55,048 nt of DNA from a virus (lineage: Duplodnaviria; Heunggongvirae; Uroviricota; Caudoviricetes), in IMG/VR virus record IMGVR_UViG_2541047910_000003, positions 1 to 55,048 of that record; one strand, written 5' to 3'. Numbering within the stretch: position 1 is the first letter of the stretch; the number at the start of each line of letters is the position of its first letter. The notes beneath the pieces were generated by a model. That model had not been told where the DNA came from. It made no database searches and worked only from the letters and a program-made list of their open reading frames with translations. The position numbers and the translations under genes are program-made. Shown piece after piece: positions 1 to 52,553 of this stretch.

Positions 1-525
1 ATGAGTTTTCTTTTGCCGTGTGGTGGAATTATGAATAATATAGATTTATTAAAAACTATAACAAACTACAAAAAAATCAAAAATCCGGCATACCCGGCTC
101 AGGAGAGTCTGTTAATACACTTATATATTAGAGTAAATGACAAAATCCAGAGTATTATAGAAAATGAATTGAGCGAGTATAGAATAAACACTTCAACATT
201 TATGGTGTTAGTTTCATTATATATGTCTGATGATTATTGTCAGTCCCCTTCTGATATTTACAAGGAGTTACAATTCTCCAAAACAAACATCACACACATC
301 ATAGACAAATTAGAAAAAAAGAATATTGCCAAAAGAATTAATAATAAAAACGATCGTCGAAGCAAAAGTATTTGCTTAACCCCTGACGGAGTTACACTTG
401 CTCAAAAACTAATAAACACTCAAAATGTAATGCTAAAGAAAATCTGGAGCGGGCTATCAGATGATGAAATGAAAACATTTGAACTCGCCAACAAAAAATT
501 ATTATCAAACCTTAATGTTAATTGA
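1..525 (+). CDS. MarR-family winged-HTH transcriptional regulator
   Basis: 174-aa ORF. The core SPSDIYKELQFSKTNITHIIDKLEKKNIAKRINNKNDRRSKSICLTPDG is typical of a MarR wHTH. Very AT-rich. The ORF touches the window edge, so the 5' end is uncertain (internal Met at nt 31). Confidence 0.6.
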   Translation: MSFLLPCGGIMNNIDLLKTITNYKKIKNPAYPAQESLLIHLYIRVNDKIQSIIENELSEYRINTSTFMVLVSLYMSDDYCQSPSDIYKELQFSKTNITHIIDKLEKKNIAKRINNKNDRRSKSICLTPDGVTLAQKLINTQNVMLKKIWSGLSDDEMKTFELANKKLLSNLNVN

Positions 526-959
526 TGTTAAAACATACTAACAGTCATCTTCTTACAATGTATTCTTCTGGAGAGAATAACTACCTGAATATATAAAGAC
601 ATTAATCACACTCTCATTTAATTACAATGAGCATAAGAGCCACCAATGTTTATGCTGGTTAGGCTTTATACAGGAAACAATAAAAAAACGTCATTAAACA
701 AAGCGTTTTTAATGGCGTTGTTATTTAAAAGAAAGATATCAAATATAGATTAACCCCCATCGAATAAAGATGTTGTCTAATCATACCTGAAGGTATTTAT
801 CACTAGAATTTTATTTGTATAAATGGACATATACCATTGGAAGATTTAGAAAAGCATGTCTAGGAGTTTAAGGACAAATCTCATACTGATTATCGGAAGC
901 TTTTATCATTATATGATTACCAAGCATACAATGTATAATTATATACACTATTATTGTGA

Positions 960-1298
960 TTATAATTTGTTACTGTGCCACTCAAGGGCAATATCTTTGA
1001 AGGTGTTGTTTAACTGCGTTTCCCGGGCAATCTTTTCCTCTCGCTTCACTTCCATCAGATCGATTCCCCCAGAGATACCTCTTTTAGCTTCTTCAAGTTT
1101 TGCAGGAGCATCAGCTAAGGTGACCTCAGGATACACACCTAGTGCTAACAGCTTCTCTTTACCAGCTACACGATACTTGAGACGCCAATATTCTCCTCCA
1201 CCAGGTTTTACCAGGAGGTACAGACCACCACCATCAGCCAACTTGTAAGCCTTCTCTTTTGGCTTGGCAGTGTCTATTTGACGGGCATTGAGTTTCAC
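960..1298 (-). pseudogene. N-terminal fragment of a P4/CP4-57-type tyrosine integrase
   Basis: MKLNARQIDTAKPKEKAYKLADGGGLYLLVKPGGGEYWRLKYRVAGKEKLLALGVYPEVTLADA is the arm-binding N-domain (DUF4102-like) of P4-type integrases. It stops after 112 codons with no catalytic domain downstream. It lies 150 bp from a thrW 3'-end copy. Confidence 0.75.
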
Positions 1299-1471: not shown

Positions 1472-1614
1472 AAAACACTCGATTAATCTCGTGTTAATGC
1501 CATCACCTACGACCATTACTAATTGATTGAATCTTATAGAAAAAATCATCATTTTCTATGCGTTACAATCAATTTTCACATTACAAACGCTCCGACACTT
1601 TAGCCGGGGAGTTT

Positions 1615-2892
1615 ATGAGATACAAGCCCAATCAATACATAATCTGTGATTCTTACGGTAACTACTATTTGAGGATCACATTGCCTGTGTATATGCAGCC
1701 CTTTTTTGAAGGAAAAAGGACGTTTGTCAGGAGTCTACATACAAGTAATCTTCGTGTTGCACGTAGAAAGCGTGATCAGATTGCAGATGAATACCATTGC
1801 TTACGGGAGAGTGTCGCTCCTGTAAACAGCACAATAGAGAACACGCTGGAACTGTTACGAAGTAAGGCTAAATACGCCAAAACAGCTACCAGAATGCAAG
1901 ATACAGCGTCTTCGTGTCCGTCATTGCTTAAAATTCTTGAAATCTACCTGACAATTAACAGCACGAAGAAGAAGCCAGCCACTTTAGCTAAGGCAAGAAA
2001 AGCGGTAGAGATGTTTCTCTCCTACCGTAAAAAGCCTGATATTGCATTGCAAGATGTGAGCCGCACCACTGTTACAGGCTGGATTGAACACATGCAAAAA
2101 ACCCTTTCACAACAATCAATTGCAAATTATATCAGCCCAATGGCCCAGCTATGGGAGTTAGCTTCATCACGTTACCACGATGCGCCAGAAAGGGCGCTCT
2201 CCCCCTGGCGAGGGCATAGGCTTGATGTGGCACAAAGTAGAGAGAGCTACGAGGCATTTTCTAACAAAGAGCTATTGCAGGTGTTGCAAGTATTTTCCGG
2301 TAATTCAGCAGAAAACAAAGAAATGATGGCTTTGTGTCTTATCGGTTTATATACAGGTATGCGGATCAATGAGATAGCAAGTCTCACAATAGACGATGTG
2401 AAAGAGATCGAAGGTGTGCTGTGTTTTGAAATCACACAGGGAAAAACGAAAGCTGCGGCACGTGTTGTGCCTGTGCATAGCCTTATCACTCCGTTGGTGT
2501 TGTCGCTGCGTGAAAAGCCTCATAATGGCTTTTTGTTCTATCACGCCAGCATTACAGAGCGTGCTGATGGTAAACGCTCTACGTGGCACACGCAGAGATT
2601 TACAAGAGCTAAACGAAAGGCTTTAGGGGAAAAGGGAACAGAAAGGAAAGTGTTTCATTCTCTGAGACACGGAGTAGCACAGCTTCTTGATCGAAATCAA
2701 ATTCCAGAAGACAGGATCGCCCTTCTCCTGGGCCATACACGCGGCAATACAGAGACATTCCGCACATATAGCAAGAATGCAGCTTCTCCAGTAGAGCTTA
2801 AAAACTATATTGAGCTTCTACGCTACCCTGAAATAGAGAAAGGCTTATCAATCAATAAAAAATCAAATTTAAGGCGTAAAACAACGCCATAG
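1615..2892 (+). CDS. int: tyrosine recombinase/integrase
   Basis: C-terminal catalytic motifs are present: GMRINEIASL (Arg), HSLRHGVAQLL (H-x-x-R), LLGH, and a late Tyr (FRTYSK). The ORF is open from 1558, but GGGGAG precedes the Met at 1615. Confidence 0.85.
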   Translation: MRYKPNQYIICDSYGNYYLRITLPVYMQPFFEGKRTFVRSLHTSNLRVARRKRDQIADEYHCLRESVAPVNSTIENTLELLRSKAKYAKTATRMQDTASSCPSLLKILEIYLTINSTKKKPATLAKARKAVEMFLSYRKKPDIALQDVSRTTVTGWIEHMQKTLSQQSIANYISPMAQLWELASSRYHDAPERALSPWRGHRLDVAQSRESYEAFSNKELLQVLQVFSGNSAENKEMMALCLIGLYTGMRINEIASLTIDDVKEIEGVLCFEITQGKTKAAARVVPVHSLITPLVLSLREKPHNGFLFYHASITERADGKRSTWHTQRFTRAKRKALGEKGTERKVFHSLRHGVAQLLDRNQIPEDRIALLLGHTRGNTETFRTYSKNAASPVELKNYIELLRYPEIEKGLSINKKSNLRRKTTP

Positions 2893-2973
2893 ACGCAATA
2901 AAGAGGCTTCAACATAGATTGGTAGCCTCTTTTATAATTACATCGTTACAGAGCGTTTTAGAGGCGTTTACGG

Positions 2974-3687
2974 CTATTCCTGTTTAAAGGCAGGCGTAAT
3001 AGTGTCTTCACCTTCACTACTTGATCTTTCAGCGTTAACACGTTTCTTCAAATTCGCCCCGATGTTCTTAGATGGCTGTGTTTTGATAGCTACAGTGTTT
3101 ACAGTGCCATAAGACACTAATCTGATCTGTTCAAATTCCAAATCAAATACCAGGGATTCGCTTGCCTCTTCTGTGTATTCGATGCCTGTTAAAACAACGT
3201 TCTCAAAAGTTTTATTTTCTGTAACAAGAAGAAAAGGCTGTCTACTGTCCATAATCTGATTCAGATAATCTATAGCCAATGATCTTCTGTTCCCGTTCAC
3301 CCCTGCACTCTTTAACAAGCCAGGATCGCTTTTAATCGGTGTTTCAGTGATCCTTCCTTTAAGAGAAAACTTATTGTTTTTAATTTGAACGTGATCAGAC
3401 ACAGTAGCACCATTCTCTACGGGGTAGCTTGTGACATCTGCCGAACGTCTCACGTTCACATCGTCTACACTGTCAAAGGCCAGCGCCATATAATTTTCAT
3501 AAACGTCATTGCCAGAAGATGCCAAGCCACTGGTAACAATAGCAAACCCATTTTCTCCTTTTGTTTTATTGGCTTTGCTATTTTCGTTTTTTGTAGAGTT
3601 TATATCTTGTTCTGCTTTGTAAACAGCCTGAACGTGTTGTTCTGGAGTATTTGCTGCACGTATGGTTAAAATTCCCGCCGTTGCCAT
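2974..3687 (-). CDS. putative phage tail/baseplate protein (Dit-like)
   Basis: 237 aa. The motif SADVTSYPVENGATVSDHVQIKNNKFSLKGRIT plus a C-terminal beta-rich region recalls Dit-like tail proteins. It sits directly downstream of the tape-measure-like gene. Assignment is from pattern memory only. Confidence 0.4.
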   Translation of the reverse strand: MATAGILTIRAANTPEQHVQAVYKAEQDINSTKNENSKANKTKGENGFAIVTSGLASSGNDVYENYMALAFDSVDDVNVRRSADVTSYPVENGATVSDHVQIKNNKFSLKGRITETPIKSDPGLLKSAGVNGNRRSLAIDYLNQIMDSRQPFLLVTENKTFENVVLTGIEYTEEASESLVFDLEFEQIRLVSYGTVNTVAIKTQPSKNIGANLKKRVNAERSSSEGEDTITPAFKQE

Positions 3688-3717
3688 AATAATTTCCTTG
3701 TAATGTTATGGCGGGAA

Positions 3718-5553
3718 TTACCCGCCGTTGGATTGTCCTGATAAGCTGGTTAATGTTAATGATTTCAAGAAGCTATCCCGACTTGCTCTCGCTGTAAAAT
3801 CCACATAATCGCTTAATCTTGATGTGTCAGAATTAATAGTAAGAGGAACCTCTGTTACCACTTCAAATGTAGGATTCAGATTAAACACAGGAGATAAATT
3901 ATAAGCTGGAGTTGTCATTGTAAGATTATTTAAAGCACCCTGTTTGAGATTGGTTATCGGTGCTTCGCTGACTGACATTTTTACATCTGACACAGAAGAA
4001 GCATTATCATCGAAAAGCCATCCCTTAATTGTGTTAAAAAGAGAATGACTATTATCAGGTGTAGTTGTTGCAGTTCCAGCGCCTTTATATTGGTCAGGAA
4101 CGAGATTAGAAAGATGCTGTTTCATCCCTTCATTGCTTAATGGCGGTGCATCTCCCATATTTTTCTGAATAGCATCTGTCTTATCATCATTACGATTAAA
4201 CCAGTTTACAATCTTCATAATGGCCTCAAAGAGACTTCCTGTAGCTTCTCCCAGCTTCGTAAAATACGGAGTGAGATTAGAAAGGTTTTTCATAAACTCT
4301 TCCGTTACTTTTGGATCGAGAGATTTCATAAAGCCGTCTACAAATGCTACTTGTCTTGCATCAGAAAGCTGTGAAAGCTGTCTGTTTAGTTCTCTGAATT
4401 TAACAATAGATTCTTGCTGTGTTTCTGTTAGCCATTTTCCAGAGGCTTTTTGCTGATTAATACTTTCTTGTACATCTTTAACGGAACGTTGCCAATATTT
4501 TGATGTAAGCATCAAATCATCGCCCAGGTCTTCTAAACGTTGTCCAATTTGGGAGTCTGAAAACCCTTTTTTCATCATTCCATTAACAGCCTTAGAAATT
4601 AATCCGGCTGGATTATCAGCAAATTTTTTAAGGTCGCTCTTGTTAATAACACCGATGTTTAGAAGTTCATTAATAGCGTTATCACCGCCTTTCCACTCGC
4701 CGCCTTTACCAGTTTTTTTATCGACTACATATTCAGCTTCACTATAGGATTTTGCGGCACGTTCCCTAACATCTTTCATCTGATCCAGGTATTTCCTAGC
4801 CCCTTGATCACCCATCATAGAGTCAACGCCGTTTCTATACGCCCATTCTGTAATATTATACATCTGGTTAACGTCTACACCGCCAAGCCTTGCACGTTGG
4901 ATTAATTCTCCTTGTGTTTCAGCATTAGCGAAGCTATTAGCCATAAACTCGGCGGTTTTACTAACAGCCATCACGCCAGCAGCAGCCGTAGCGCCTCCAA
5001 ATAACAGAGCGCCCATAGTGGCGGAATTCCCTGATCCTCCCTTAACGGGGGCAAATTGAGCTTTTCTGTTGCCATTAATCTTACGTTGTTGTTGTTGTAA
5101 GCGTTTCATTTGGCTATTCATACGTGCAAGCGAGATAGCGCCTTGTTCGTATTGTTTCGCTATCTCTCTAGCCTGTGCAATAGCTTTATATTGTTCCGCT
5201 ACAGAGAGGCGGTGCATTGCACTTATAGAGCTTGACACATCAAGGAGTTTTAATTCTGCTTTCTCTTTACGTGCTGCTATTTGTGCCTGTTGCCTTGCCT
5301 GTGCTCTTGCTGCGGCAGCTTGTGCTCTTTGATTCTGTTTTTCGTTTTTCGCTTTCTGTTGAGCAATCTTATCTACTTCACTTTGTGCTTTCTTATAGCC
5401 TTTAGTGACATTATCAAATCTTAATTTAGCTGGCTTGATGTTCTCTGCGAATTCCTTTAAGCCTGTAATAGAGTCTTTCGCTTTTTTCAAGCTGTCTTTA
5501 TCTACACTAAATGTTACTGTGTTCTTAATTTTAGAAGTGTTAATTTCTAACAT
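3718..5553 (-). CDS. tape-measure-like or internal virion protein
   Basis: 611 aa. It has an N-terminal Q/A/K-rich coiled coil (QRAQAAAARAQARQQAQIAARKEKAE) and a hydrophobic Gly/Ala segment (GALLFGGATAAAGVMAV). The remainder is long and helical. No enzymatic motif seen. Confidence 0.5.
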   Translation of the reverse strand: MLEINTSKIKNTVTFSVDKDSLKKAKDSITGLKEFAENIKPAKLRFDNVTKGYKKAQSEVDKIAQQKAKNEKQNQRAQAAAARAQARQQAQIAARKEKAELKLLDVSSSISAMHRLSVAEQYKAIAQAREIAKQYEQGAISLARMNSQMKRLQQQQRKINGNRKAQFAPVKGGSGNSATMGALLFGGATAAAGVMAVSKTAEFMANSFANAETQGELIQRARLGGVDVNQMYNITEWAYRNGVDSMMGDQGARKYLDQMKDVRERAAKSYSEAEYVVDKKTGKGGEWKGGDNAINELLNIGVINKSDLKKFADNPAGLISKAVNGMMKKGFSDSQIGQRLEDLGDDLMLTSKYWQRSVKDVQESINQQKASGKWLTETQQESIVKFRELNRQLSQLSDARQVAFVDGFMKSLDPKVTEEFMKNLSNLTPYFTKLGEATGSLFEAIMKIVNWFNRNDDKTDAIQKNMGDAPPLSNEGMKQHLSNLVPDQYKGAGTATTTPDNSHSLFNTIKGWLFDDNASSVSDVKMSVSEAPITNLKQGALNNLTMTTPAYNLSPVFNLNPTFEVVTEVPLTINSDTSRLSDYVDFTARASRDSFLKSLTLTSLSGQSNGG

Positions 5554-5772
5554 TTAAAACCCCCCCTTATTAATCATTTTACCACCTTCTTTACTTAAGA
5601 AATGGTGTAGAGCCTGATCAATACTCTCGTTTAGTCTGAACATACGGGCTTTTACGCCTTCATATGGAACATCTAAGAGAGAACAGAGATATTTCAGATT
5701 TAACAAGCCTCTAGAATCATTAGCATCTAAATGTACGTGTACACCATTTTTTGATTTCAAAATCACTTCCAT
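5554..5772 (-). CDS. hypothetical protein
   Basis: 72-aa ORF that abuts the start of the 611-aa gene. It is the first gene after the capsid-gene terminator. Confidence 0.4.
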   Translation of the reverse strand: MEVILKSKNGVHVHLDANDSRGLLNLKYLCSLLDVPYEGVKARMFRLNESIDQALHHFLSKEGGKMINKGGF

Positions 5773-5794
5773 ATTTTAATCACCTCTCAAAATT

Positions 5795-5838
5795 TAAAAA
5801 TAAATAAAAAAAGGCGAAGCGTGAATACACGCCACGCC
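5795..5838 (-). terminator. intrinsic terminator after the capsid gene
   Basis: Stem ggcgaagcgtg/cacgccacgcc (internal mismatch), followed on the minus strand by TTTTTTATTTATTTTT. Confidence 0.65.
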
Positions 5839-5857
5839 TCTATTACACGTTAAAATA

Positions 5858-6886
5858 TTATTTAACAGTGATTTGAACGGAGAAGCCTACACCGTGGTTT
5901 ACAACCATCTGGCTATTCTCTGTAACAACGTTAACAGCATCACCACGAGAAGATTCATAGCTGTAACTATACACCTCAGCAGGAGCGGCATTAATCAGTT
6001 CAAAGGTGCTGGAAGCCGCCCCATAGATGGCCTGGTAGACGTTAGAGAATTTAGCGAATTTAGGCACAGCTACAGCGTCTGCGGTCATATGTGCAAGGTG
6101 TAGCGGATCTACCAGTTTAACAACATCAATGTTAGTTCCTGGAATAGTGAACGCTGTCACTCCTGGTAGCAGGTCACGACGCTGATACACAACGTTCCCT
6201 TCTTCCAGTGGGCTTACATACTGGAATGCGTTTGCCATACCAGCAGAGAATCGAATTGCAGAGAAGGCTTCCGGCTTACAGAAAACAACAATACGCTCTA
6301 CAGCAGCCGCCTGGCTTTGTGCTTTTTCGATAATGTCAGTAGCAATCTGATCAAATTCTTTAAAAATCTTCGTGGTGTCAGTGCTGGAAGCGTTCACAGT
6401 GGCTTTCATAGCTGATACGTTAAACAGCTTGCCCCACTCAATTAACACATCATCAGTTTTAGGCGTGTAAGTTTTGCCAGAGAACAAAGAAGCAGCCAAT
6501 ACGCTCTCTTTTGTACGCTGGAATGCAACATTGTGTTTAGCAACATATTCCGCGTAGATATCAGTGAGTGTTTCCTGGAAATCAGTGCCAGGTTTACGTT
6601 TGCCTTGAACATCAGAAGGACGGATCACATCTTCACGCAGGAAGTAAGGGATCTCGATCAGCCATTCTTTACCTTGTTCTCGCTTAGTAACATTGTGTTC
6701 AGAAGAGAAACGAGAGGTTTCTTTGTTGAACAGAGATTCGTTGCTTTCGACAAGCTGGGAAACAGCTACTTTATGAGATGTAACCCCTACAGAATCCGTA
6801 AAATCAAGGGTAGAAAGCAGATAATTTCTAGTGCTATGCGCAGAGAACAGAGGAGCTAAATCAACGTAATCATTACCTAGAATCAT
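5858..6886 (-). CDS. major capsid protein, lambda gpE-like (HK97 fold)
   Basis: 342 aa, the same length class as lambda gpE (341 aa). Colinear resemblances include the C-terminal GFSVQITVK versus lambda EFVSVQLA. It is preceded by a small decoration-like gene, as in the lambda D-E order. Confidence 0.6.
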   Translation of the reverse strand: MILGNDYVDLAPLFSAHSTRNYLLSTLDFTDSVGVTSHKVAVSQLVESNESLFNKETSRFSSEHNVTKREQGKEWLIEIPYFLREDVIRPSDVQGKRKPGTDFQETLTDIYAEYVAKHNVAFQRTKESVLAASLFSGKTYTPKTDDVLIEWGKLFNVSAMKATVNASSTDTTKIFKEFDQIATDIIEKAQSQAAAVERIVVFCKPEAFSAIRFSAGMANAFQYVSPLEEGNVVYQRRDLLPGVTAFTIPGTNIDVVKLVDPLHLAHMTADAVAVPKFAKFSNVYQAIYGAASSTFELINAAPAEVYSYSYESSRGDAVNVVTENSQMVVNHGVGFSVQITVK

Positions 6887-6904
6887 TTATTATTATTCCT
6901 TTTA

Positions 6905-7267
6905 TTAAGAAGTGAAAACAGAATGGAACCCTTCAAGCTGGAAGCCTTTTTTAATTAATGCTGTTTTTGCTGCTTCACTTACAGCATTCAGGGCATCAGC
7001 TTTAATGCATACAAGCCCAGCATTGCTACGTAAAACATCTACAGGCTTGTTGTCTCCAGCCGTTACAAATTCACTCATAACAACATAGATATCATCTCCT
7101 GATACATATTTAGCGCCCGTGCTGGTGATCAAGTCGCCGCACTCAACATCAGCAGGAAGAGAAGCAAAAACCTTGCTTTCTACAGAGGCAAACGGATCAG
7201 TACAATAACTTACAATATCTGTGAAAGTCTTTCTAACTGGAAACAGAGTGTCTAAATCAATAATCAT
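6905..7267 (-). CDS. putative head decoration/cement protein (DUF2190-like)
   Basis: 120 aa, immediately upstream of the capsid gene. The pattern GDLITSTGAKYVSGDDIYVVMSEFVTAGDNKPVDVL is reminiscent of DUF2190-type proteins. Confidence 0.4.
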   Translation of the reverse strand: MIIDLDTLFPVRKTFTDIVSYCTDPFASVESKVFASLPADVECGDLITSTGAKYVSGDDIYVVMSEFVTAGDNKPVDVLRSNAGLVCIKADALNAVSEAAKTALIKKGFQLEGFHSVFTS

Positions 7268-7476
7268 TTAGTAATCTCCTTAGCTTTTAATTTGATTAAT
7301 TCATTAATGGAAGGTGTAGACGGAGAAGAAGGAGAAAAATATTTTTCAACACATCGTTCTACGTCCTCTACAGAACACCCAGCGTATTTAGCTACCATTT
7401 CGGTAATTTGTGGATTAATTTTCAGCATTTCATCTTTATACTTGATGATTTGCTCTTTATCATTTAAGAACAACAT
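7264..7476 (-). CDS. hypothetical protein
   Basis: 70-aa ORF that overlaps the next gene by 4 nt. It is the first gene of the capsid operon. Confidence 0.4.
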   Translation of the reverse strand: MLFLNDKEQIIKYKDEMLKINPQITEMVAKYAGCSVEDVERCVEKYFSPSSPSTPSINELIKLKAKEITK

Positions 7477-7535
7477 TTATATAAACCTTGTTACCTTGTT
7501 TAAAGTAAGAAATACAACTTTTAAGTTGCATAACG

Positions 7536-7569
7536 GGCAAAATAAAAGGCAGCATTTAAAGCCGCCTTT
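7536..7569 (-). terminator. intrinsic terminator between the early-like and capsid operons
   Basis: Stem aaaggcagc/gccgccttt, followed on the minus strand by TTTTATTTTG. Confidence 0.55.
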
Positions 7570-7806
7570 GTAATTACCCTATGTTATGCACACTCCAAGA
7601 TGTATGCATAACAAAGGAAAAAAGAGGTATAATGACACAGTATTACTTAAGGAGGAGAAGCGGGGAGCGGAGATTTTACTCCCCTTTAACGACAAGAAGA
7701 ATTTTTAATATCGAACCAATAAAGGAAAAATAATAACCCTATATAATTATATTAACATACAATATATGAAATGTCAAGATATTTTACAACTTTTTTGTTG
7801 CTTTTT

Positions 7807-8172
7807 TTATTCTTCTGTGATAGTAGCGCCTAAGCGTTGAGCTAGTTCAACAAGTCCATCTCCTACATAGCGAACATCAGAGTCGATATCTTCTATCCAG
7901 TTTGATAGCTCCCATAGCTGAGAGGCTGTCAGGTATGCGTTCTCACGCTTACAGAGCATCTCTACACGCTTAGAGAGGTGCTCAAAGGCATTCACAGCTA
8001 AATCCCAGTGTTTAAACGCCTCATTTAGTGCCGCTGGCGTGTTTTCTTTGTATGCTTCAAGTTCAGCGCGGTTTAAAGGCAGGAGGTAATCATCCTCATA
8101 ATAATTAATTAGTGAGTAAATTGTGTCATACGTGTTTTTGTTCATATTAAAAGTCTCCATAGTGATCAGCAT
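7807..8172 (-). CDS. hypothetical protein
   Basis: 121-aa acidic helical ORF in an operon with the upstream genes. Confidence 0.4.
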   Translation of the reverse strand: MLITMETFNMNKNTYDTIYSLINYYEDDYLLPLNRAELEAYKENTPAALNEAFKHWDLAVNAFEHLSKRVEMLCKRENAYLTASQLWELSNWIEDIDSDVRYVGDGLVELAQRLGATITEE

Positions 8173-8557
8173 TATCTAAAATTTGAAAGTCTGGAACTAA
8201 ATTATTTAGGCCATTGGTGGCGAGATAACCAACGTAGTGGTTATAGTCTTCAAATCCTAAAATCTGGTATTTGCGTAAATCAGAGCTATCAACAATATAC
8301 TCTTTTCTTTTTCTAGGTTTCCAGAATACGCCAGGTGTTGAAGATAAGATTTCTTGTAAGGCGTTAAATTCATCTCCACAAGGCACAGAGGGAGAATGTT
8401 CTATGATCTCTGTTTTCCATTCGCCAGGGGCGCTATTATGCTTGGTGAGCGTAACTAGCTCTTTAAAGTCTTTGCGTCTTAGAATAGATTTAGGTTTACT
8501 TAGAAGAGAAGCTGAATCACCGATTTTCTTAACAACGTTGTTTTTTCTTTTTGCCAT
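8147..8557 (-). CDS. hypothetical protein
   Basis: 136-aa ORF with a basic N-terminus (MAKRKNNVVKK). Confidence 0.4.
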   Translation of the reverse strand: MAKRKNNVVKKIGDSASLLSKPKSILRRKDFKELVTLTKHNSAPGEWKTEIIEHSPSVPCGDEFNALQEILSSTPGVFWKPRKRKEYIVDSSDLRKYQILGFEDYNHYVGYLATNGLNNLVPDFQILDNADHYGDF

Positions 8558-8686
8558 TTATTTTTCCTTTTCTTTTAAAGGAAAACACCCCGAAATATGC
8601 TTCTAACGTGAGAAAGAACAATAACCAATACATAGCTACTATCATAATAATGTTTTCCTTTTATATTTTAATTACATAGAGAGATT

Positions 8687-8965
8687 TTAGAGAGTGGAAT
8701 AGATGAATTCTATTTCTTTATCTAGTCTTTTGAGATTGAATGTAGAGAAAGATAATTCTTTAATCTCTATAACACCGAAATTTGATAGCTGTTTCAGCCA
8801 GAATTTTAAACCAGCTTCAGAGCACCCTGCTCGATGTAACACATCGCTATATTTTAGCGGTGTTGGCTTTCCTTTATAGAGGTAAGCAAGTGTCTCGTAG
8901 ATGCGTTTTCCTGTGTCATTACACTGAATTCTGTCTACTTGATTTTTTACTAAATATTGAATCAT
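8687..8965 (-). CDS. small winged-HTH-like protein
   Basis: 92 aa. SDVLHRAGCSEAGLKFWLKQLSNFGVIEIK resembles a wHTH. Confidence 0.4.
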   Translation of the reverse strand: MIQYLVKNQVDRIQCNDTGKRIYETLAYLYKGKPTPLKYSDVLHRAGCSEAGLKFWLKQLSNFGVIEIKELSFSTFNLKRLDKEIEFIYSTL

Positions 8966-8976
8966 AACCCTCCTTA

Positions 8977-9708
8977 TTAAAATGGAATATCAAAGTCGTC
9001 ATATACATTTGGGTAATGCTTAGAAAAATATGCCTCAATACCATTTGGTCGTTTTAGCCCGTATCTACAAGCTAGTGAATTTGCAAACTCAATAAATGAT
9101 GCTCCTCCTGTTCGTGTGTGTTTCTCCTGGATGATAAGAGAGGCAAAATTCTCTAACACATCCTCCTCATTATCATTAGCTACCTTTTCACTTGATGAAA
9201 CAGGTGTTTCTTCCGTCTCCCACGGCAAAGGCGCATCCCAATCATCAAGAACATCAAAAGAAGGCTGTTTATGGCCTTTAGGTTGTTCCTGTGCTTCTTC
9301 TGCCTCAGAAAGATCAGAGAGTGATGATTCTCCTGGGGGAGTAATATGTGCATCTGTAAATGGTAATGCTTTATAGAGTGATGTTTGACCGTCCCGTGCC
9401 TCTACAGAAAGAACTCCCATATCAACAAACATATTTATAATATTGCGAACCTGGCGATCACTAACCATTCCAATATTAGCTAATGTTTTTTGAGTAGCGT
9501 AACATTCTTGCCCTTGTTCATTGAATCCAGCTATATAGCTATAGATTTCAACGGCTGGCAGTGTAGCGGTGTATTCATTACCAGATGGTGAATACCATTT
9601 TTTAAACATCTTCAACCATTGCTCAACAACTACATATTTTTGTTTACCATCTTTCTGATTTAGACATTTGGCTTTCGCTTCGGCAATTGTTTTGATATTT
9701 TTGATCAT
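8977..9708 (-). CDS. putative replication-initiation/origin-binding protein with an SSB-like C-terminal tip
   Basis: 243 aa. N-terminal wHTH (QKTLANIGMVSDRQVRNIINMFVDMGVLSV), an acidic linker, and a C-terminus ending ...VYDDFDIPF. Confidence 0.45.
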   Translation of the reverse strand: MIKNIKTIAEAKAKCLNQKDGKQKYVVVEQWLKMFKKWYSPSGNEYTATLPAVEIYSYIAGFNEQGQECYATQKTLANIGMVSDRQVRNIINMFVDMGVLSVEARDGQTSLYKALPFTDAHITPPGESSLSDLSEAEEAQEQPKGHKQPSFDVLDDWDAPLPWETEETPVSSSEKVANDNEEDVLENFASLIIQEKHTRTGGASFIEFANSLACRYGLKRPNGIEAYFSKHYPNVYDDFDIPF

Positions 9709-9832
9709 TTAGTTCCTCCTTTGTAAGGACTGTAATTAGTAGTTCATTAACAAGTTTTGGAATTGATTTCCCTTCTGCCTTTGCGCGATTTAACAACGCG
9801 TTATAAGTTGCAGAATCAAAATTAATATTCAT
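9644..9832 (-). CDS. ribbon-helix-helix (CopG/Arc-like) protein
   Basis: MNINFDSATYNALLNRAKAEGKSIPKLVNELL fits a beta-strand plus two-helix RHH pattern. The 3' end overlaps the next ORF. Confidence 0.5.
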   Translation of the reverse strand: MNINFDSATYNALLNRAKAEGKSIPKLVNELLITVLTKEELNDQKYQNNCRSESQMSKSERW

Positions 9833-9855
9833 TTGGTTTTCTCCTTCTCCTGTTA

Positions 9856-10038
9856 TTATTCTTTCTCTGCTTCTTTCTTACGCAGTTCATCAATAATCTT
9901 GAGTGCTTCATTGAAGCAAGCTGCTCGCTCTGGATAACCTCGACTCCTTGCCATATTACGATTCATTACTACTTGGTGGCGTGTAAGCTCACCTTCTTTA
10001 AATGCCTGTACGACGTGTTCCGGTGTAAACCATTTCAT
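9856..10038 (-). CDS. hypothetical protein (first gene of the leftward operon)
   Basis: 60-aa ORF with an AAGGAG RBS upstream. Confidence 0.45.
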   Translation of the reverse strand: MKWFTPEHVVQAFKEGELTRHQVVMNRNMARSRGYPERAACFNEALKIIDELRKKEAEKE

Positions 10039-10149
10039 AAAAACTCCTTATTCAGTTAAAAGAAAAAACACCTTGCAAGCCTGACGGCTTCAAAGTGCAT
10101 TGATTTTGATTATTTAGAGAAGAATGTTTTTCTGTCCCTCTAATACCTA

Positions 10150-10177
10150 TTATTACATATAAAGAAACATTTGTCAA
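10150..10177 (-). promoter_or_regulatory. sigma70-like promoter for the 10038-to-7807 operon
   Basis: On the minus strand: TTGACA, 16 nt, TAATAA. The -35 is at 10172-10177 and the -10 at 10150-10155. Confidence 0.55.
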
Positions 10178-10811
10178 TACCCTTTTCGAAAAAAATCGAT
10201 CTTTTTCAGCATGTTATAATTTGTCTTAGCAATTCGTGCTCTTCTGTGTAGTGCTATTCTTCATTATTGTCTAAAACGCTCTAAAACGCGTTCTAACGAA
10301 GTTTTGATAAAAGCAATACATTCTCTTATGTAGAGGCTATTTATCTCGTCAGAGGCTTATTTAAGGGGCTTATTTTGTATTTGTTAGGTATATGAAAAGG
10401 TGATGGTAGATATAAAACAGAGAGTCACTTTATAAAACGTTCTGTAAAGCCCTGTAGTGAGCTTATATATGTAGGCAATGCGTTTCCATTCCCTACCCTG
10501 CTTAATGCTGTTAGAGAAGCATTTAGACCCCTTATTTTTAATTACCTAAAGTATCCTCTATACATCTCTGTTATGAAACACCTCTGAATCCTTCATAAAA
10601 CACATTATGACGCAAAGAACACCTTTTCTAAGGTGATTCCCTTCCTGAATGCTGTTTCTTGCGTCAGAGAGCTACATAGAGCTTATAAAGCTATTATTAA
10701 TAATAAAGTAGATAAAGTAAGTAAGATAAGTAAGAAGATTAACTAAGATAGATAAGATTAATAAGATCAGAATTCTCTTTCGGTGTCGCCTCTGGCTTTT
10801 CCACCGAAAAC

Positions 10812-10969
10812 AATTACACGACTACAGAATGTAGGAAGTGGAATTGTATTGAGGCTTAGTGAAATTACACGAGGAAAGCAGAGTGTAATTGAGCTTTAGC
10901 CGCTCTCTCTTCGAGTAATTACACAACTACAGAGAATAACGAGAGTTATTAAATGTAGGAAGTGGAATT
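10812..10969. repeat. repeat cluster (AATTACAC boxes plus two exact 18-mers)
   Basis: AATTACAC at 10812, 10863 and 10917, and inverted at 10883. aatgtaggaagtggaatt is exact at 10828-10845 and 10952-10969. Confidence 0.8.
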
Positions 10970-11239
10970 AAGAGGTAGAGAGATAGAGTTAACACATAAG
11001 CAATCAGTATGATTGGTTAGGTGATTACTCTTCTGCGCACAGCGCAATAGTATTTCTTCGTGGGCGTTACCGCCAACGATAGTTACACGAAGAAAGTAAC
11101 GCTTTGCTTTCGGTGTGAGCGGAACGGGCCAGCCAACGTAGCCCAAAGGTAGCGGAGTAAGGCTGCTTGCCAGAGAGTGAAGCTAACGCCGGAAGGCAAA
11201 AAGATCATATATATATAGTATAAAGAATATTATTTATAT

Positions 11240-11295
11240 TATTTAATTATAGTATTTAATTATAGTATTTAATTATAGTATTTAATTATAGTATT
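11240..11295. repeat. four perfect tandem AT-rich 13-mers (DNA-unwinding-element-like)
   Basis: tatttaattatag occurs four times head-to-tail (11240-11291) plus a partial fifth copy. Confidence 0.9.
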
Positions 11296-11298
11296 GGT

Positions 11299-11398
11299 GG
11301 AACTCATTTCCTAGGTAGGTAGGAACTCATTTCCTAAGTAGGTAGGAAACCACTTCCTAGGTTACTTCCTAAATAGATCGGAAATCATTTCCTAGGTG
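11299..11398. repeat. iteron array A (about 23-bp units)
   Basis: ggaactcatttcctaggtaggta, ggaactcatttcctaagtaggta, ggaaaccacttcctaggtta and ggaaatcatttcctaggtg are directly repeated. Confidence 0.85.
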
Positions 11399-11413
11399 TT
11401 ATTTATACTTATC

Positions 11414-11471
11414 GGGTATCAGTTTTGATAGGGGTATCAGACTTGATAGGGGTAACAGAATTCTGTGGGGG
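11414..11471. repeat. iteron array B (18-bp units)
   Basis: gggtatcagttttgatag, gggtatcagacttgatag, then gggtaacagaattctgtggggg. Confidence 0.8.
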
Positions 11472-12142
11472 TAGCTCACAGTGACCTACCGTTACTACCA
11501 ACTTTCTTACAGAGAGCATTTCAGATAGCTGAATGTAACCTCTCGTTACATCCATTTGTCACATAGCACTCTGTGTAATGCCTTTCTATGTGTGTGCCAT
11601 AATCCCCCTATATTCCCTGTGTAAATCATAGAATAATGCTCTCTATTCCCTGTGTAATTCCATACTAAAAATTCAATGAAAAAGTAGCTTAAAAGTGCAA
11701 TTCTCACTTTCTTCACTTTTACATCACTTTCGCAAAGCCTTGTGTAATGCGGCTTACAGCGCACTATCAGAAATTGTTGGCTAAAAATTGTTCTGCTTGT
11801 TTCTTAATGAGTTTTCTTGTTTGTGCAAATTTTAAAATTTATTTTGTTTTTACAGCCTTATTTCGTGTAATGCGTGGCATAGCAAGCCCTTTTCTTGTGT
11901 TGTCAAGACATTTGGCAACGTTCAAACATCTGTTTAGAAATGCCAAATTGTTGATCTAACAAATAAACCTGTATAAACAGAACACCATTTAATCTATTCC
12001 CCTGTGTATCCATTAGGCATACCAAATGAATACATCTAAATCGTGTAATATTCCGTACCTATAAGGCTTGAAACAGACAAAATGAATACGATATACTCAT
12101 TTGCATTGAAGTAGTGCCAAATCGATACATTAAGAGGATTTT

Positions 12143-12682
12143 ATGAGCAATATCGGTTATAAGCGTGTGAGCACTGTAGATCAGAACACTGATCGCCAGC
12201 TTGCAGGAGTAACGCTTGATAAAGTCTTTGAAGATAAGCTGTCAGGTAAAGACACTAACCGTCCAGGATTGCAGGCGTGTTTATCCTATCTGAGAGAAGG
12301 CGACACCTTACACGTCCACTCTCTTGATCGTTTAGGGCGTAACACCTTAGACATTCTGGAGTTAATCAAACAATTGAATGATCGAGGTGTAATTGTTCGC
12401 TTTCACAAAGAAGGAATCATTGCTGACATTACAAGCGCGATGGGAAAGATGATGCTTACGATGTTGTCGGCAGTTGCAACGTGTGAACGTGAACTGATGT
12501 TAGAGCGTAAACGAGAAGCGCAAGCCGTCAATCCTACAAAGCGTGGTAAAGGGAAGGCAGTAGATAGGGAAGGTATAAAGAAAGCCCTTTCCGCTGGCGT
12601 GTCAGTGCGTAAAACCGCCGAGAGCTTTAATGTTGCTCCTTCAACGGTGCAACGTATCAAGAAGGAAGAAGAGGAGGCGTAA
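12143..12682 (+). CDS. serine recombinase (resolvase/invertase family)
   Basis: GYKRVSTVDQNTDRQ contains the catalytic Ser motif. LDRLGRN is present and a C-terminal HTH (VRKTAESFNVAPSTVQRI) follows. 179 aa, the same domain order as Tn3/gamma-delta resolvase. Confidence 0.85.
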   Translation: MSNIGYKRVSTVDQNTDRQLAGVTLDKVFEDKLSGKDTNRPGLQACLSYLREGDTLHVHSLDRLGRNTLDILELIKQLNDRGVIVRFHKEGIIADITSAMGKMMLTMLSAVATCERELMLERKREAQAVNPTKRGKGKAVDREGIKKALSAGVSVRKTAESFNVAPSTVQRIKKEEEEA

Positions 12683-12699
12683 TGCCTCCTTGATATTTG
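12673..12699 (+). terminator. terminator after the resolvase gene
   Basis: ggaggc-gtaat-gcctcc followed by ttgatattt. Confidence 0.5.
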
Positions 12700-13009
12700 G
12701 GGATTCTGGATTTTCCAGATCGGGGGGCGCTGATCTTCGCGTTAAACATTGATCACGTTTGCGCCGATTTCAGATAAAAAGGCAGCTATTAAGCAATACG
12801 TAACTTTTACAATTAGTGAAATTATCTAAAACACAAGTTATATAGATGAGAAAATGAAATATTATCTTGAACAAATCAAACAAAACAACACATCATCTTG
12901 TTGACACCATGCAAAGTGAATAGTAAGCTATTATATGTGAAAATTTGCACATTGCATGCAATAAAAAATAAATGATACCTTGTTGTTGTTAAATCAATAG
13001 GGGGTATCT

Positions 13010-13168
13010 ATGCGCTTTATCTTATCCATTTTAAAAACCTGCAGAACCACAATTACTTTAGCTGTAATTGTTACCATCATATACCTCATCTATTTTACCC
13101 CTCGAGATAAAATCGATTCACTAGCGATCATCGTTCATGCAATGGCTACATTAACTAAAAAACTTTAA
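13010..13168 (+). CDS. small hydrophobic membrane peptide (52 aa)
   Basis: Hand translation gives MRFILSILKTCRTTITLAVIVTIIYLIYFTPRDKIDSLAIIVHAMATLTKKL. A GGGGG RBS lies upstream. A promoter (TTGACA, 17 nt, TAAGCT) is at 12901-12929. Too short for the ORF track. Confidence 0.4.
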   Translation: MRFILSILKTCRTTITLAVIVTIIYLIYFTPRDKIDSLAIIVHAMATLTKKL

Positions 13169-13234
13169 TAATTTCACTATCAGGCGCACAAACACATCTT
13201 TGATTGCTGGATGTGTTATGCGCCTACTGGTGAT

Positions 13235-13387
13235 TCAATCCTTAAGCCATTTCAACTCACTAAGGAGTTTTCTTTCTTCGTTCTCTCGCTGTTTACGCTC
13301 TAGCCAGGCTTTTCCCTCTGGCGTAGACAGGAACTTACGAGCGTGAATCTTGCGGTTATTACGTTTTATAGCTGCAATGTTTTTCAT
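13235..13387 (-). CDS. small basic protein (50 aa)
   Basis: Hand translation gives MKNIAAIKRNNRKIHARKFLSTPEGKAWLERKQRENEERKLLSELKWLKD. It converges on the 52-aa ORF across a long hairpin (13183-13224). Confidence 0.35.
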   Translation of the reverse strand: MKNIAAIKRNNRKIHARKFLSTPEGKAWLERKQRENEERKLLSELKWLKD

Positions 13388-13990
13388 CGTGTTGCCTCTG
13401 TATTCATATGAAAATTAACAAGTTACATACTACACAGGGAGACTACGCATAAAACACAATACAAGTAAAGATACATTTTCAAGACAATAGGAGCCATAAA
13501 GCGCCTTTGATGGTTATACCAAAAAATAAGCGCCGTAGGCGTATCCACTAAAAGGGCTTTTTCACAAAAGCTATGAAGTCTTAGCAGTTCTTCTCTTATC
13601 AGGCACCCGTTGTACTCCGGTGGACGAAACCGTGCTAGAGCTTGATTCTTTCCCGATCAAGTTAGGTTTTGAAGAGGTGGGCTTTAATCCACTATTGCAC
13701 TTAAAACTCTTCCCATCATTTAGCCTGTTTATCCTCTGCAACGTCTCACGACGTGTGGCATCATTGGACACCGCGCCAGGTGTGGAACATCTTGCTAAGA
13801 GTTTTGGTAGAAGGTTTAGAGACGGTGGCACGTCTTCCAGCTTCAAAGGAACTTGTTACGAGGTTGAGCCTGGGAACTACTCGCCCATACGTGTTACACT
13901 ACCAAAGCCCATAACAACGTATAGGCGTTTGTAAGTGATAACAGAAGATACAATTTCTTAGAGAAGTTAAGCTAAGTTATTGATTTTCTT

Positions 13991-14038
13991 AATGGTGCCG
14001 ATAATAGGAGTCGAACCTACGACCTTCGCATTACGAAT
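13991..14038. repeat. 48-bp direct copy of the thrW 3' end (distal att junction of the P22-like prophage)
   Basis: Identical to 53603-53650. Its first 21 bp also equal 1451-1471. Confidence 0.95.
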
Positions 14039-16501: not shown

Positions 16502-17425
16502 TCAGTAGTTATGTACTGAAGGAGGTAATTCTTTGTTCTTAAGTCTTATCCATGCTGAAAGGTTTGTTGGTCCGTCTGGCTCATTAATATCAACATCTCG
16601 TGTATGGTTGATTAAAACATCTCTCGCCATATCGATAATACGGGAGAACTCATAACCGCAGTCATGACATCTGCCGGAATAGTTCGATTGAATTTGTTTT
16701 AGCGCCGGATACAATTCGCGGAATAATGCCTGTGAGCGGTTGGCATAATCCCATAGCCATACAAGGCTGTTTGCTTCTTTTGCAGAAAGCTCGTTGGTTT
16801 TCTTCTCTTGTTTGCCAATGAACTCACCTTCAAGCGGAACTCGAGCTGCAAGTGACAGTGCTTCGGTAAACTGCTCCTCACTGATTTCTTTGTATGAACA
16901 TCCAAAATGGGATTTCAGTGACGACCACATGGTGATCATCGCCTTAGCCTGTTTTTCCTTTGGCAGAGACTGACCGCGACTCATGACGAGTTGTTTAATG
17001 GCTTCCTGCTGTTCAGTGGTGATTTTACCCGGCAACGCCTTTTTAGCTTTGCGTGGGTTAACTACATGACCTTTAGTCCAGTACTCGTATAGCACATCGT
17101 CACACTCTTCCTGATACTGGATTACCTTGTCGCGGATTTCAGGACGGACTTTGTTTGGCTGAATGCTTGAAAGCCAAGCCGCAAACTTACGAAAGGCAAG
17201 GCATATCATTAACTGTTTACCGCCAGCAGAAGGTATTTCGATTTCCGAAATACCTTTGACAAATCTCTGTTTTAATTTAACAAATTGAGCAGCCCAAACC
17301 ATACCCATGCCTTCTACAACGGGTTTCATAGGAACGTAAGGTTCATTGTTAATGCTGACCAAAAAGAGATTTGTTCCGTGGAATGGAACGTTGATTGTAT
17401 GTTCTGCAATTGCTACACTCGTCAT
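16502..17425 (-). CDS. ant: antirepressor Ant
   Basis: 307 aa. PMKPVVEGMGMVWAAQ...NKVRPEIRDKVIQYQEECDDVLYEYWTKG parallels the P22 Ant N-terminal domain. It sits downstream of arc. Confidence 0.85.
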   Translation of the reverse strand: MTSVAIAEHTINVPFHGTNLFLVSINNEPYVPMKPVVEGMGMVWAAQFVKLKQRFVKGISEIEIPSAGGKQLMICLAFRKFAAWLSSIQPNKVRPEIRDKVIQYQEECDDVLYEYWTKGHVVNPRKAKKALPGKITTEQQEAIKQLVMSRGQSLPKEKQAKAMITMWSSLKSHFGCSYKEISEEQFTEALSLAARVPLEGEFIGKQEKKTNELSAKEANSLVWLWDYANRSQALFRELYPALKQIQSNYSGRCHDCGYEFSRIIDMARDVLINHTRDVDINEPDGPTNLSAWIRLKNKELPPSVHNY

Positions 17426-17499
17426 GTCGTTAATTCCTATGCGTGGTTTTACGATACCGAAGCCCTGACTGTTACCGCAGTTGGGGCTTCACTGTTTTT
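17426..17499 (+). ncRNA. sar-like antisense RNA covering the ant translation-initiation region
   Basis: Plus-strand promoter TTGATT (17391-17396), 17 nt, TACACT (17414-17419) inside the 5' end of ant. Terminator gaagccc...gggcttc plus TTTTT at 17459-17499. Same layout as P22 sar. Confidence 0.45.
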
Positions 17500-37347: not shown

Positions 37348-37423
37348 TGGTGCTGGTTAACGGACTTGAACCGCTACCCATTCGCTTACAAGGCGACTGC
37401 TCTACCATTGGAGCTAAACCAGC
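37348..37423 (-). tRNA. tRNA-Thr (anticodon UGU)
   Basis: Hand fold: GCTGGTT-TA-GCTC-CAATGGTA-GAGC-A-GTCGC-CTTGTAA-GCGAA-TGGGT-AGCGG-TTCAAGT-CCGTT-AACCAGC-A-CCA. Confidence 0.8.
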
Positions 37424-37428
37424 ATATT

Positions 37429-37503
37429 TGGCGGGACAGCGTGGACTCGAACCACGATAAGAAGGTTAACAGCCTTCCGTAATGACCTTTATACGACTGA
37501 CCC
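37429..37503 (-). tRNA. tRNA-Asn (anticodon GUU), one acceptor-stem mismatch
   Basis: Hand fold: GGGTCAG...GAAGG-CTGTTAA-CCTTC-TTAT-CGTGG-TTCGAGT-CCACG-CTGTCCC-G-CCA. There is a T:T mismatch at 4:69 and a weak D-stem. Confidence 0.6.
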
Positions 37504-52205: not shown

Positions 52206-52553
52206 GTGGAAGAAGAAATCTTCACTCGTGAAGAGGCAGCATCGTATCTGAAGGTAGACAAAGGCACTATCACGCAGTGGATACGAAGTGGACGACTTCA
52301 GGCCGCAAAGATAAATCCAGATAAACCTAAAAGCCCATATCGCATTTGCAAGTCAGACTGCATTGCGGCGCTTAAGTCTGTAAGACACAATAGCGCGGTG
52401 AATGCGGTTGATGTGCAGGAGGTTAAAGCATGTCAATCAAACTACGCGGTGGCACGTGGCACTGTGATTTCGTCGCGCCAGATGGATCAAGAGTTAGACG
52501 CTCTCTTGAAACATCGGACAAAAGGCAAGCGCAAGAACTTCACGATCGTCTGA
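52206..52553 (+). CDS. xis: excisionase (HTH_17/MerR-like)
   Basis: FTREEAASYLKVDKGTITQWIRSGRLQAAKI is an excisionase-type HTH. Directly upstream of and overlapping int. Confidence 0.75.
   Translation: MEEEIFTREEAASYLKVDKGTITQWIRSGRLQAAKINPDKPKSPYRICKSDCIAALKSVRHNSAVNAVDVQEVKACQSNYAVARGTVISSRQMDQELDALLKHRTKGKRKNFTIV

Follow-up and report, generated by a model that had tools for sequence, protein, structure and literature searches.

An island at Escherichia coli thrW with its own capsid, tape measure and tube initiator genes, a possible satellite of phi92-like myoviruses

A 55,048-nt stretch of DNA recorded in IMG/VR as a tailed virus (IMGVR_UViG_2541047910_000003, positions 1 to 55,048; hereafter the window) contains at positions 1472-13992 a 12.5-kb element that lies at the Escherichia coli thrW tRNA gene and is flanked by thrW repeats. 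Four virion parts, and no others, are recognisable among the products of this island, namely the capsid, a gpD-like cement protein, the tape measure and the tail tube initiator. We put at roughly 0.55 the probability that the island is an integrative satellite that relies for help on the phi92/phAPEC8 group (Stephanstirmvirinae) of large, virulent myoviruses, and that it would make a small capsid of its own and chimeric tails. Its genomic signature is satellite-like, combining small size, attachment (att) repeats, an integrase, a replication module, a partial set of virion genes, spread across genera and exchange of DNA with phages. An earlier note, made from the letters of the window alone, had already treated the element as a satellite, and its surroundings (att repeats, integrase, replication initiator, and neither packaging nor tail-shaft genes) agree with that view. 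Gene calls are defined by a listing of open reading frames (ORFs) together with Pfam and PHROG profile searches of the island ORFs; no island ORF matched portal, terminase, protease, neck, sheath, tube or chaperone families in Pfam, PHROG or NCBIfam.

Two tail-core proteins related to those of phi92

The structural ORFs are on the minus strand in the order 70, 120 and 342 aa, an 85-bp spacer, and then 72, 611 and 237 aa. The 611-aa protein (3718-5553, minus strand) is a tape measure protein, homologous to phi92 gp134 (659 aa). It falls in PHROG family 16051 (phrog_16051, 1.2e-53) and matches the solved phi92 protein (PDB 21vq_V, Phi92_gp134) at 2.6e-39, which confirms the tape measure call of the earlier note. 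It is collinear with the 659-aa tape measure of phage Eryne. The BLASTP alignment of the two spans residues 1-66 and 173-611, the first ~37 residues are ~85% identical, and the C-terminal segment, which is located in the baseplate, is conserved. A Gly/Ala hydrophobic segment at ~173-205 has a counterpart in the phage tape measure, with which it aligns, and the N-terminal third is rich in Lys, Gln and Ala and, judged by eye, coiled-coil-like. These features place the protein in the phi92-type tape measure class, and no chaperone gene lies upstream of it in the island. Identity to the tape measures of known phages is 28-36%; in identity matrices inspected for signs of repeated exchange of tape measures with helpers, the values among islands (18-87%) overlap with those between islands and phages (19-37%). 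The island tape measures are 611-650 aa long as against 651-662 aa in the phages, and the shortfall of the 611-aa protein relative to the helper (about 48 aa) falls mostly within the N-terminal coiled coil.

The 237-aa protein (2974-3687, minus strand) is a Dit-like tail tube initiator, homologous to phi92 gp135. It scores 101.8 bits against the Pfam Dit_like profile (3.8e-29; cut-off 24.2), and it matches PDB entries 21vq_N (Phi92_gp135) at 3.6e-79 and 9cuy_K, a tube initiator, at 3.3e-13. It is 61% identical to its Eryne homologue, and its gene directly follows that of the tape measure, as in phages. The Dit-like assignment made earlier is therefore correct and can be made more exact, since the protein corresponds to the hexameric tube initiator of the myovirus baseplate. 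In both proteins the best-conserved regions are the termini that contact helper parts. The places of the homologues in the virion are known from cryo-electron microscopy (cryo-EM) of phi92, in which gp124 and gp123 build the T=13 head, the tube begins at a ring of gp135, and gp134, a trimer, runs inside the tail lumen, has its C-terminus in the baseplate and is expelled along with the DNA (PMC13450770).

Between the capsid and tape measure genes is an ORF for a 72-aa protein (5554-5772, minus strand) that is conserved in nearly all lineages of the family. Its sequence suggests that it is probably a small helix-turn-helix DNA-binding protein; all such matches are below threshold, Sigma70_r4_2 appearing in 4 of 11 members. 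It could be a candidate regulator or packaging-specificity factor. Two other identities for this ORF were considered and rejected, namely a frameshift extension of the tail assembly chaperone and a counterpart of the 75-aa ORF of the helper. Direct comparison with the 75-aa ORF gave no similarity, and the chaperone was compared through its Pfam family only, with no Phage_TAC match.

Capsid, cement and a 70-aa protein

The 342-aa protein (5858-6886, minus strand) is a major capsid protein of the lambda gpE type with an HK97 fold. Its Phage_cap_E score of 55.8 bits (cut-off 22.9) is above the gathering cut-off over the full domain, and a profile of the 342-aa capsid family has phi92 gp124 as its best solved relative (2.5e-18). 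Profile score and HK97 fold together assign the protein to the gpE type, as had been proposed from the letters; the structure model is of low confidence (pLDDT 52) and serves as corroboration only. The protein is only about 20-23% identical to the capsid proteins of the Stephanstirmvirinae helpers, and no close phage relative was found in 50,697 phage records.

The gene that precedes that of the capsid encodes a 120-aa protein (6905-7267, minus strand), predicted to be a gpD-like capsid cement or decoration protein. A structure model of medium confidence has the beta-tulip fold of gpD, and the gene is immediately upstream of that for the capsid, where a gpD-like protein is to be looked for. 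The decoration-like character ascribed to the protein in the earlier note is thus seen in its predicted structure. Its sequence matched no Pfam or PHROG family. A sequence homologue of the helper cement protein was also considered and discarded for want of similarity, so that it is the fold that backs the cement identity.

The first structural gene encodes a 70-aa protein (7264-7476, minus strand), a candidate mini-scaffold by virtue of its C-terminal motif. It ends in SINELIKLKAKEITK, and its homologues from other lineages end in QDLIARKVKK, QERIANKVKK and QDLINAKAQQ. In phages Eryne and phiWec188 a 371-aa protein encoded between the protease and the cement protein, which is probably the scaffold, ends in SASELIRQKAAELKK. 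Among 322 background ORFs only the Eryne and phiWec188 proteins have the motif [DE][LR]I..K[AV] at the C-terminus, and BLASTP of the 70-aa protein against the putative phage scaffold gives E = 0.085. SaPI1 CpmB, a protein of 72 aa, copies the capsid-binding tail of the scaffold of its helper, and the 70-aa protein is similar to it in size and in having a short, helix-like C-terminal motif that resembles the end of the putative helper scaffold. CpmB and P4 Sid differ in that they redirect the capsid of the helper, whereas the island has its own. A small scaffold with a helper-scaffold-like tail is therefore a weak lead, drawn from a short motif chosen post hoc and not from homology.

Control of the structural operon

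The earlier note had the order of the six minus-strand ORFs exactly right, and likewise the 85-bp distance between the 342-aa and 72-aa genes (5773-5857) and the terminator within it. This intrinsic terminator (5816-5840, minus strand) has a 9-bp G+C-rich stem followed by T7 and a predicted energy of -20.7 kcal/mol. A hairpin with a U-run occurs in the same place in most island lineages and also 3' of the helper capsid gene, and no promoter-like site was found between the terminator and the tape measure gene. Because of this conservation, its counterpart in the helper and the lack of an intervening promoter, the terminator most likely sets the stoichiometry of the products, as a particle needs hundreds of capsid subunits but only 3 copies of the tape measure and 6 of the initiator.

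The operon is preceded by a leader (7545-7777, minus strand) in which a near-consensus sigma-70 promoter (7777-7749) is followed by a second intrinsic terminator (7569-7545), about 180 nt from promoter to terminator. In most lineages a terminator-like hairpin is found 60-110 nt upstream of the first structural gene, and this recurrence suggests that the structural operon is controlled by read-through (antitermination). A palindrome, CAACTTAAAAGTTG, is also present just ahead of the first structural gene on the minus strand (window 7477-7806).

A myovirus module without its middle

The earlier note had read the module against siphophages, in which a D-E pair and a tape measure-Dit pair are separated by about ten genes. 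We rejected that frame because the homologues of the tail proteins all come from contractile-tailed Stephanstirmvirinae. The Eryne genes run from an XkdF-type protease through the 371-aa protein, cement and capsid to nine further genes, which are followed by tape measure and initiator. The nine genes encode two hypothetical proteins, a tail completion/neck protein, a minor head protein, the tail terminator, the sheath, a structural protein of the virion (probably the tube), the assembly chaperone and the 75-aa ORF. Set beside this arrangement, the island looks like the Eryne module with its middle removed.

The deposited annotation of Eryne seems to be shifted in this region. The gene labelled DNA methyltransferase (589-1068 of the locus) matches the XkdF-type prohead protease (Peptidase_S78_2, 2.5e-11), and the one labelled head maturation protease (1071-2186 of the locus) is without a protease signature and stands in the scaffold position.

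Links to Justusliebigvirus and Phapecoctavirus

The only phage relatives of the tail proteins at useful identity are Stephanstirmvirinae. The tape measure had 134 matches in the 50,697 phage records, nearly all of them in Justusliebigvirus or Phapecoctavirus, and the best phage matches of the initiator (59-61%) are to the same phages. The tape measure of the Klebsiella island is closest (40-42%) to that of Phapecoctavirus, a genus that includes Klebsiella phage ZCKP1.

Two patches in the early region of the island tie it more closely to these phages. Positions 9353-9613 (260 bp, the helix-turn-helix domain of the 243-aa replication initiator) are 97-99% identical in DNA to muut_154, an early gene of Justusliebigvirus, and positions 9680-9846 (167 bp, in the 62-aa ORF) are 97-99% identical to bas60_0101 of phage PaulScherrer. 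Both patches are carried by only some Justusliebigvirus phages. Identity at this level shows that the island and Justusliebigvirus phages have recombined recently, and therefore that they have resided together in one cell.

A family of islands under purifying selection

Homologues of the capsid protein were found solely in chromosomes of Enterobacterales, namely those of E. coli, E. albertii, Citrobacter, Enterobacter, Klebsiella, Cronobacter, Kluyvera, Buttiauxella, Scandinavium, Leclercia, Dryocola, Serratia and Sodalis. In every locus examined a core of small ORF, cement, capsid, small ORF and tape measure was present beside an integrase. The islands of E. coli, Klebsiella, Serratia, Sodalis, Buttiauxella, Kluyvera, Scandinavium and Citrobacter share this core and differ in their integrases and replication modules, so that the reduced gene set recurs in at least eight genera and at several integration sites, while the size of the islands stays constant at 12-13 kb. 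The Dit_like gene is carried by the two E. coli lineages, by islands of the Buttiauxella type and by Sodalis. In the islands of Serratia, Buttiauxella and Kluyvera a P-loop protein of 485-497 aa (GSGKS/GAGKT), ~6.1-7.6 kb into the locus, takes the place of the 243-aa initiator, and replication modules have thus been swapped around a constant structural core.

Among the 12-13 E. coli copies found, all genes except the 72-aa ORF are intact in 9-13; the 3' end of the 72-aa ORF varies in length. The ratio of nonsynonymous to synonymous substitution (dN/dS) among these copies is 0.05-0.24 overall, with 0.10 for the capsid, 0.085 for the cement protein, 0.08-0.20 for the tape measure, 0.07 for the integrase and, from one ungapped pair, 0.05 for the initiator. 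The genes are under purifying selection, and these ratios together with the Pfam and PHROG matches show that the structural ORFs are not chance reading frames. The structural module has matches in 530 of 5426 complete E. coli genomes, all of them chromosomal, and 287 of these genomes match over 80% or more of its length.

In two E. coli copies in IMG/VR (L024 and L028) the tape measure gene is split by a ~2-kb insertion, a likely insertion sequence (IS) element, leaving an ORF of 326 aa. In other copies IS5 or IS1 sits at different places of the island.

How the island might work, and what else it might be

If the island is a satellite of phi92-like myoviruses, infection by a helper would cause it to excise, to replicate from its own initiator and repeat arrays, and to express its one structural operon. 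Capsid and cement proteins, perhaps with the 70-aa protein as a small scaffold, would form a shell for about 12.5 kb, compared with the T=13 head of the helper, which holds about 146 kb. This shell would be built on the helper portal, filled by the helper terminase and joined to the helper neck. The terminator after the capsid gene would hold the output of tape measure and initiator low, fitting copy numbers of 3 and 6 per tail, and these two proteins would take the places of gp134 and gp135 in tails otherwise made of helper parts. With 48 fewer residues in the tape measure, and by the arithmetic of the Vibrio islands described below (95 aa to 10 nm), such chimeric tails would be about 5-7 nm shorter, equal to one or two of the 24 rings of phi92. 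The benefit would probably lie in tails that are reserved for satellite particles or better suited to them, in immunity to a block that the satellite places on the helper tape measure, or in both. The re-sizing of the capsid and the alteration of the tail, both foreseen in the earlier note, are what we would infer from gene content and by analogy.

More tentatively, and with slightly less confidence than an even bet would express, we propose that the islands form an unrecognised Enterobacterales family of satellites of virulent phi92/phAPEC8-type phages, resembling the Vibrio islands. Its members would encode only the virion parts that set dimensions (shell, scaffold mimic, tape measure and initiator) and would take the rest from the helper. 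The outcome would be chimeric particles with small heads and slightly shorter tails and a reduced yield of helper, in roughly 5-10% of E. coli strains, including extraintestinal pathogenic (ExPEC) and avian-pathogenic (APEC) ones.

Several observations weigh against a satellite of this kind. The capsid protein is ~21% identical to that of the helper and yet must assemble on the helper portal, and the difference in tape measure length (about 48 aa) is small and may have no effect. No tail assembly chaperone is recognisable in the island, and the Klebsiella, Kluyvera, Citrobacter, Scandinavium and Serratia types lack the Dit_like gene, which must be dispensable to them. Neither a small terminase (TerS) nor an Rpp-like protein was found in the island, and a search for a shared cos or pac site or other non-coding similarity with phages returned only one 46-nt match at chance level, so that a satellite of this kind would not account for how its DNA is packaged. 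The presence of these islands in IMG/VR was discarded as evidence of encapsidation, since the 20 matches there are mostly prophage-adjacent regions of isolates, three are metagenomic, and none is shown to be packaged.

The missing packaging genes and shared packaging site would be readily understood if the island were never packaged at all, but were a non-transmissible anti-phage island whose capsid, tape measure and initiator variants serve as dominant-negative decoys, co-assembling with the heads and tails of infecting phi92-like phages, spoiling them and so protecting the population. Interference with assembly is established for other mobile elements, as by Tai (PMC11364771) and by Rta of PLE11 (PMC12987554), and the conservation of tape measure and initiator, best at their helper-contacting termini, would suit a decoy as well. 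Against this, a shell kit of capsid, cement and possible scaffold, together with an integrase, a replication initiator and repeat arrays, exceeds what a decoy needs, and a constant size of 12-13 kb combined with differing integrases and replication modules across genera is the pattern of something mobile and packaged. PADLOC moreover returned no significant family match. We consider the decoy explanation possible but unlikely. Somewhat less probable again is that the island is indeed a satellite, but of other, perhaps temperate, myoviruses related to Stephanstirmvirinae that are not yet known, its similarity to phi92-like phages reflecting ancestry and occasional recombination. The moderate identities to known phages (61% for the initiator, 28-36% for the tape measure, 21% for the capsid) and the failure to find a close phage relative of the capsid in the 50,697 records are what it would predict; the 97-99% identical patches nevertheless place the island in the same cell as exactly the Justusliebigvirus phages in the recent past, and the Klebsiella tape measure is nearest to that of Phapecoctavirus, which counts Klebsiella phage ZCKP1 among its members.

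Two further explanations are given little weight. A decaying prophage that had kept four structural genes by chance would account for a gene order that equals a myovirus module with an internal deletion, and for the position of the island in a tRNA hotspot rich in prophages. Random decay would not, however, repeat the same deletion, and the same reduced set with intact ORFs and low dN/dS in at least eight genera and several sites strongly disfavours it. Slightly more improbable still is the alternative raised in the earlier note, that the 611-aa and 237-aa products are ejection or capsid-internal proteins. Some ejection proteins do combine a hydrophobic segment with a coiled coil, but both island proteins are collinear from end to end with gp134 and gp135, which cryo-EM places in the tail lumen and baseplate and in the tube-initiator ring (PMC13450770), and tape measure is followed by initiator as in phages.

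Comparison with known satellites

The earlier note had remarked that a satellite supplying a tape measure would be unusual. This can no longer be said to lack precedent, as both the phage-inducible chromosomal island-like elements (PLEs) of Vibrio (PMC12987554) and the EPIPs of Mycolicibacterium (PMC12822802) encode one. PLEs are satellites of the virulent myovirus ICP1 and encode a chaperone, a tape measure and BhuB that are 20%, 20% and 41% identical to those of ICP1 (PMC12987554, Nature 2026). PLE11 virions incorporate the tape measure and BhuB of the PLE to the exclusion of the ICP1 proteins; with a tape measure shorter by 95 aa, the tails are shortened by 10 nm; the two PLE proteins are required for transduction, which deletion of the PLE tmp gene lowers by 96-99.9%; and Rta of PLE11 blocks the helper tape measure (PMC12987554). 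We find that BhuB of ICP1 (gp78) is itself a Dit_like protein by Pfam (1.2e-17), that the ICP1 capsid is of the gpE type and that the virion genes of ICP1 are annotated as rV5-like. PLEs and the island are therefore directed at related virion modules, in which they replace the proteins at the same two positions. This precedent gives our reading its main backing from outside.

The likeness to PLEs thus extends over several features. Both are small integrated islands that face a large virulent myovirus with an rV5-like virion module, one that combines a gpE-type capsid and a decoration protein with the gene series chaperone, tape measure, Dit_like. Both encode their own tape measure and an adjoining Dit_like protein, the satellite tape measure being the shorter, and the identities to the helper for these two proteins are 20% and 41% in PLE and about 30% and 61% here. 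There are also differences. PLEs make small capsids from the ICP1 capsid protein with the external scaffold TcaP, whereas the island has its own capsid and cement; and PLEs carry a tail assembly chaperone, which is not recognisable in the island, and live in Vibrio rather than in Enterobacterales. Compared by description rather than with PLE sequences, the hallmarks of PLEs (the large serine integrase type, RepA, NixI, TcaP and SviR) were not recognised in the island.

Phage-inducible chromosomal islands of Enterobacterales that form capsids (cf-PICIs) are similar in being integrated islands of about 12-15 kb with their own HK97-fold capsid and other virion parts taken from a helper, and some have been reported to have putative tmp genes (PMC12987554, legend to Extended Data Fig. 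10). They differ in carrying a full head and packaging set (portal, protease, TerS, the large terminase TerL, HNH, head-tail adaptor and connector) and in taking only tails, from temperate phages; the island has only capsid and cement of such a set, and no AlpA or primase module. The SatelliteFinder model of cf-PICIs demands no fewer than 9 of the 11 core components and admits no tail genes (PMC10085698). In the island we count 2 of the 11 (integrase and capsid) and two of the forbidden tail genes. The hallmarks of P4-like satellites (psu-delta-sid, alpha primase) and of PICIs (alpA, pri-rep, terS or rpp) had no Pfam, PHROG or NCBIfam match in any island ORF. The cf-PICI and PICI models of SatelliteFinder would reject the island, and current detectors, in which tail genes are ruled out and a full head module is demanded, would overlook entire families of such satellites.

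The EPIPs of Mycolicibacterium aichiense resemble the island in having a capsid and a tape measure of their own, and their particles have smaller heads and altered tail length (PMC12822802). By their published description they differ in also encoding TerS, a scaffold, an adaptor, a stopper and a serine integrase, and in that the helper is a temperate siphovirus prophage in an actinobacterium. Overall the island looks most like PLEs in its tail module and like cf-PICIs in its capsid gene, in a minimal combination that appears distinct. We found no published description of the family in the literature; it is set apart from cf-PICIs by description, the accessions in Extended Data Fig. 10 of PMC12987554 not having been compared.

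If the islands are indeed satellites of this type, then E. coli, Klebsiella and their relatives would possess an equivalent of PLEs against large virulent myoviruses, and, in the host that has been studied best, a model for the takeover by a satellite of both head and tail assembly. A second independent case of a tape measure and Dit_like pair would also make substitution of the tail core a general satellite strategy rather than a peculiarity of PLEs. Phages like phi92 and phAPEC8 are used and proposed in therapy against Klebsiella and against encapsulated and avian-pathogenic E. coli; an island that parasitises them and occurs in 5-10% of strains would bear on host range, yield and gene transfer during such treatment.

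Early region, boundaries and neighbouring elements

Upstream of the structural operon is an early/replication operon (7807-10038, minus strand) with ORFs of 121, 136, 92, 243, 62 and 60 aa, defined by Pfam and PHROG searches, in which the 243-aa ORF is an HTH_36 replication initiator. A search for defence genes gave no significant PADLOC or NCBIfam match, the sole PADLOC hit being a marginal one of the 121-aa ORF to PbeC (E 0.006, 13 bits). Beyond this operon, window 10040-12140 (~2 kb) has no credible ORF and no Rfam match, and the Prokaryotic Genome Annotation Pipeline (PGAP) annotates no gene there in other E. coli copies either. The stretch includes short direct-repeat arrays (11230-11449), with a unit of 13 nt four times at 11230-11295, one of 23 nt three times at 11299-11402 and one of 18 nt twice at 11414-11449; candidates for its role are an origin, a packaging site and an RNA gene.

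The left att repeat is a 19-nt copy of the thrW 3' end, TGGTGCCGATAATAGGAGT, at 1453-1471, and the right one, at 13993-14011, is an exact repeat of it at the junction with a P22-like prophage. A third copy (53605-53623) is held by the intact thrW tRNA gene; three exact copies in the window compare with none expected by chance. Inward of the left repeat is the gene of a 444-aa tyrosine integrase (1558-2892, plus strand; Pfam Phage_integrase, 1.4e-17, plus DUF6538 and Phage_int_SAM_5). Near the right end is that of an accessory serine recombinase of the resolvase/invertase type (12143-12682, plus strand; Pfam Resolvase, 9.6e-34), which the island copy of APEC O1 is without.

The P22-like prophage that adjoins the island (window 14012-53604) appears complete and is also at thrW. 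It contains the sar antisense RNA (17427-17493), an integrase gene (52430-53590) and two internal tRNA genes, for Thr and Asn (37348-37503). The 307-aa ORF beside sar (16502-17425) may be ant, and a 692-aa ORF may be the tailspike gene. To the left of the island, window 1-1298 is a remnant of the vat pathogenicity island, placed as in APEC O1, with a MarR-type regulator (1-525), a neighbour of vat in APEC O1, and 112 codons from the start of a truncated P4-type integrase gene (960-1298, minus strand). Together with the island and the prophage, this remnant makes three elements in tandem at one tRNA gene.

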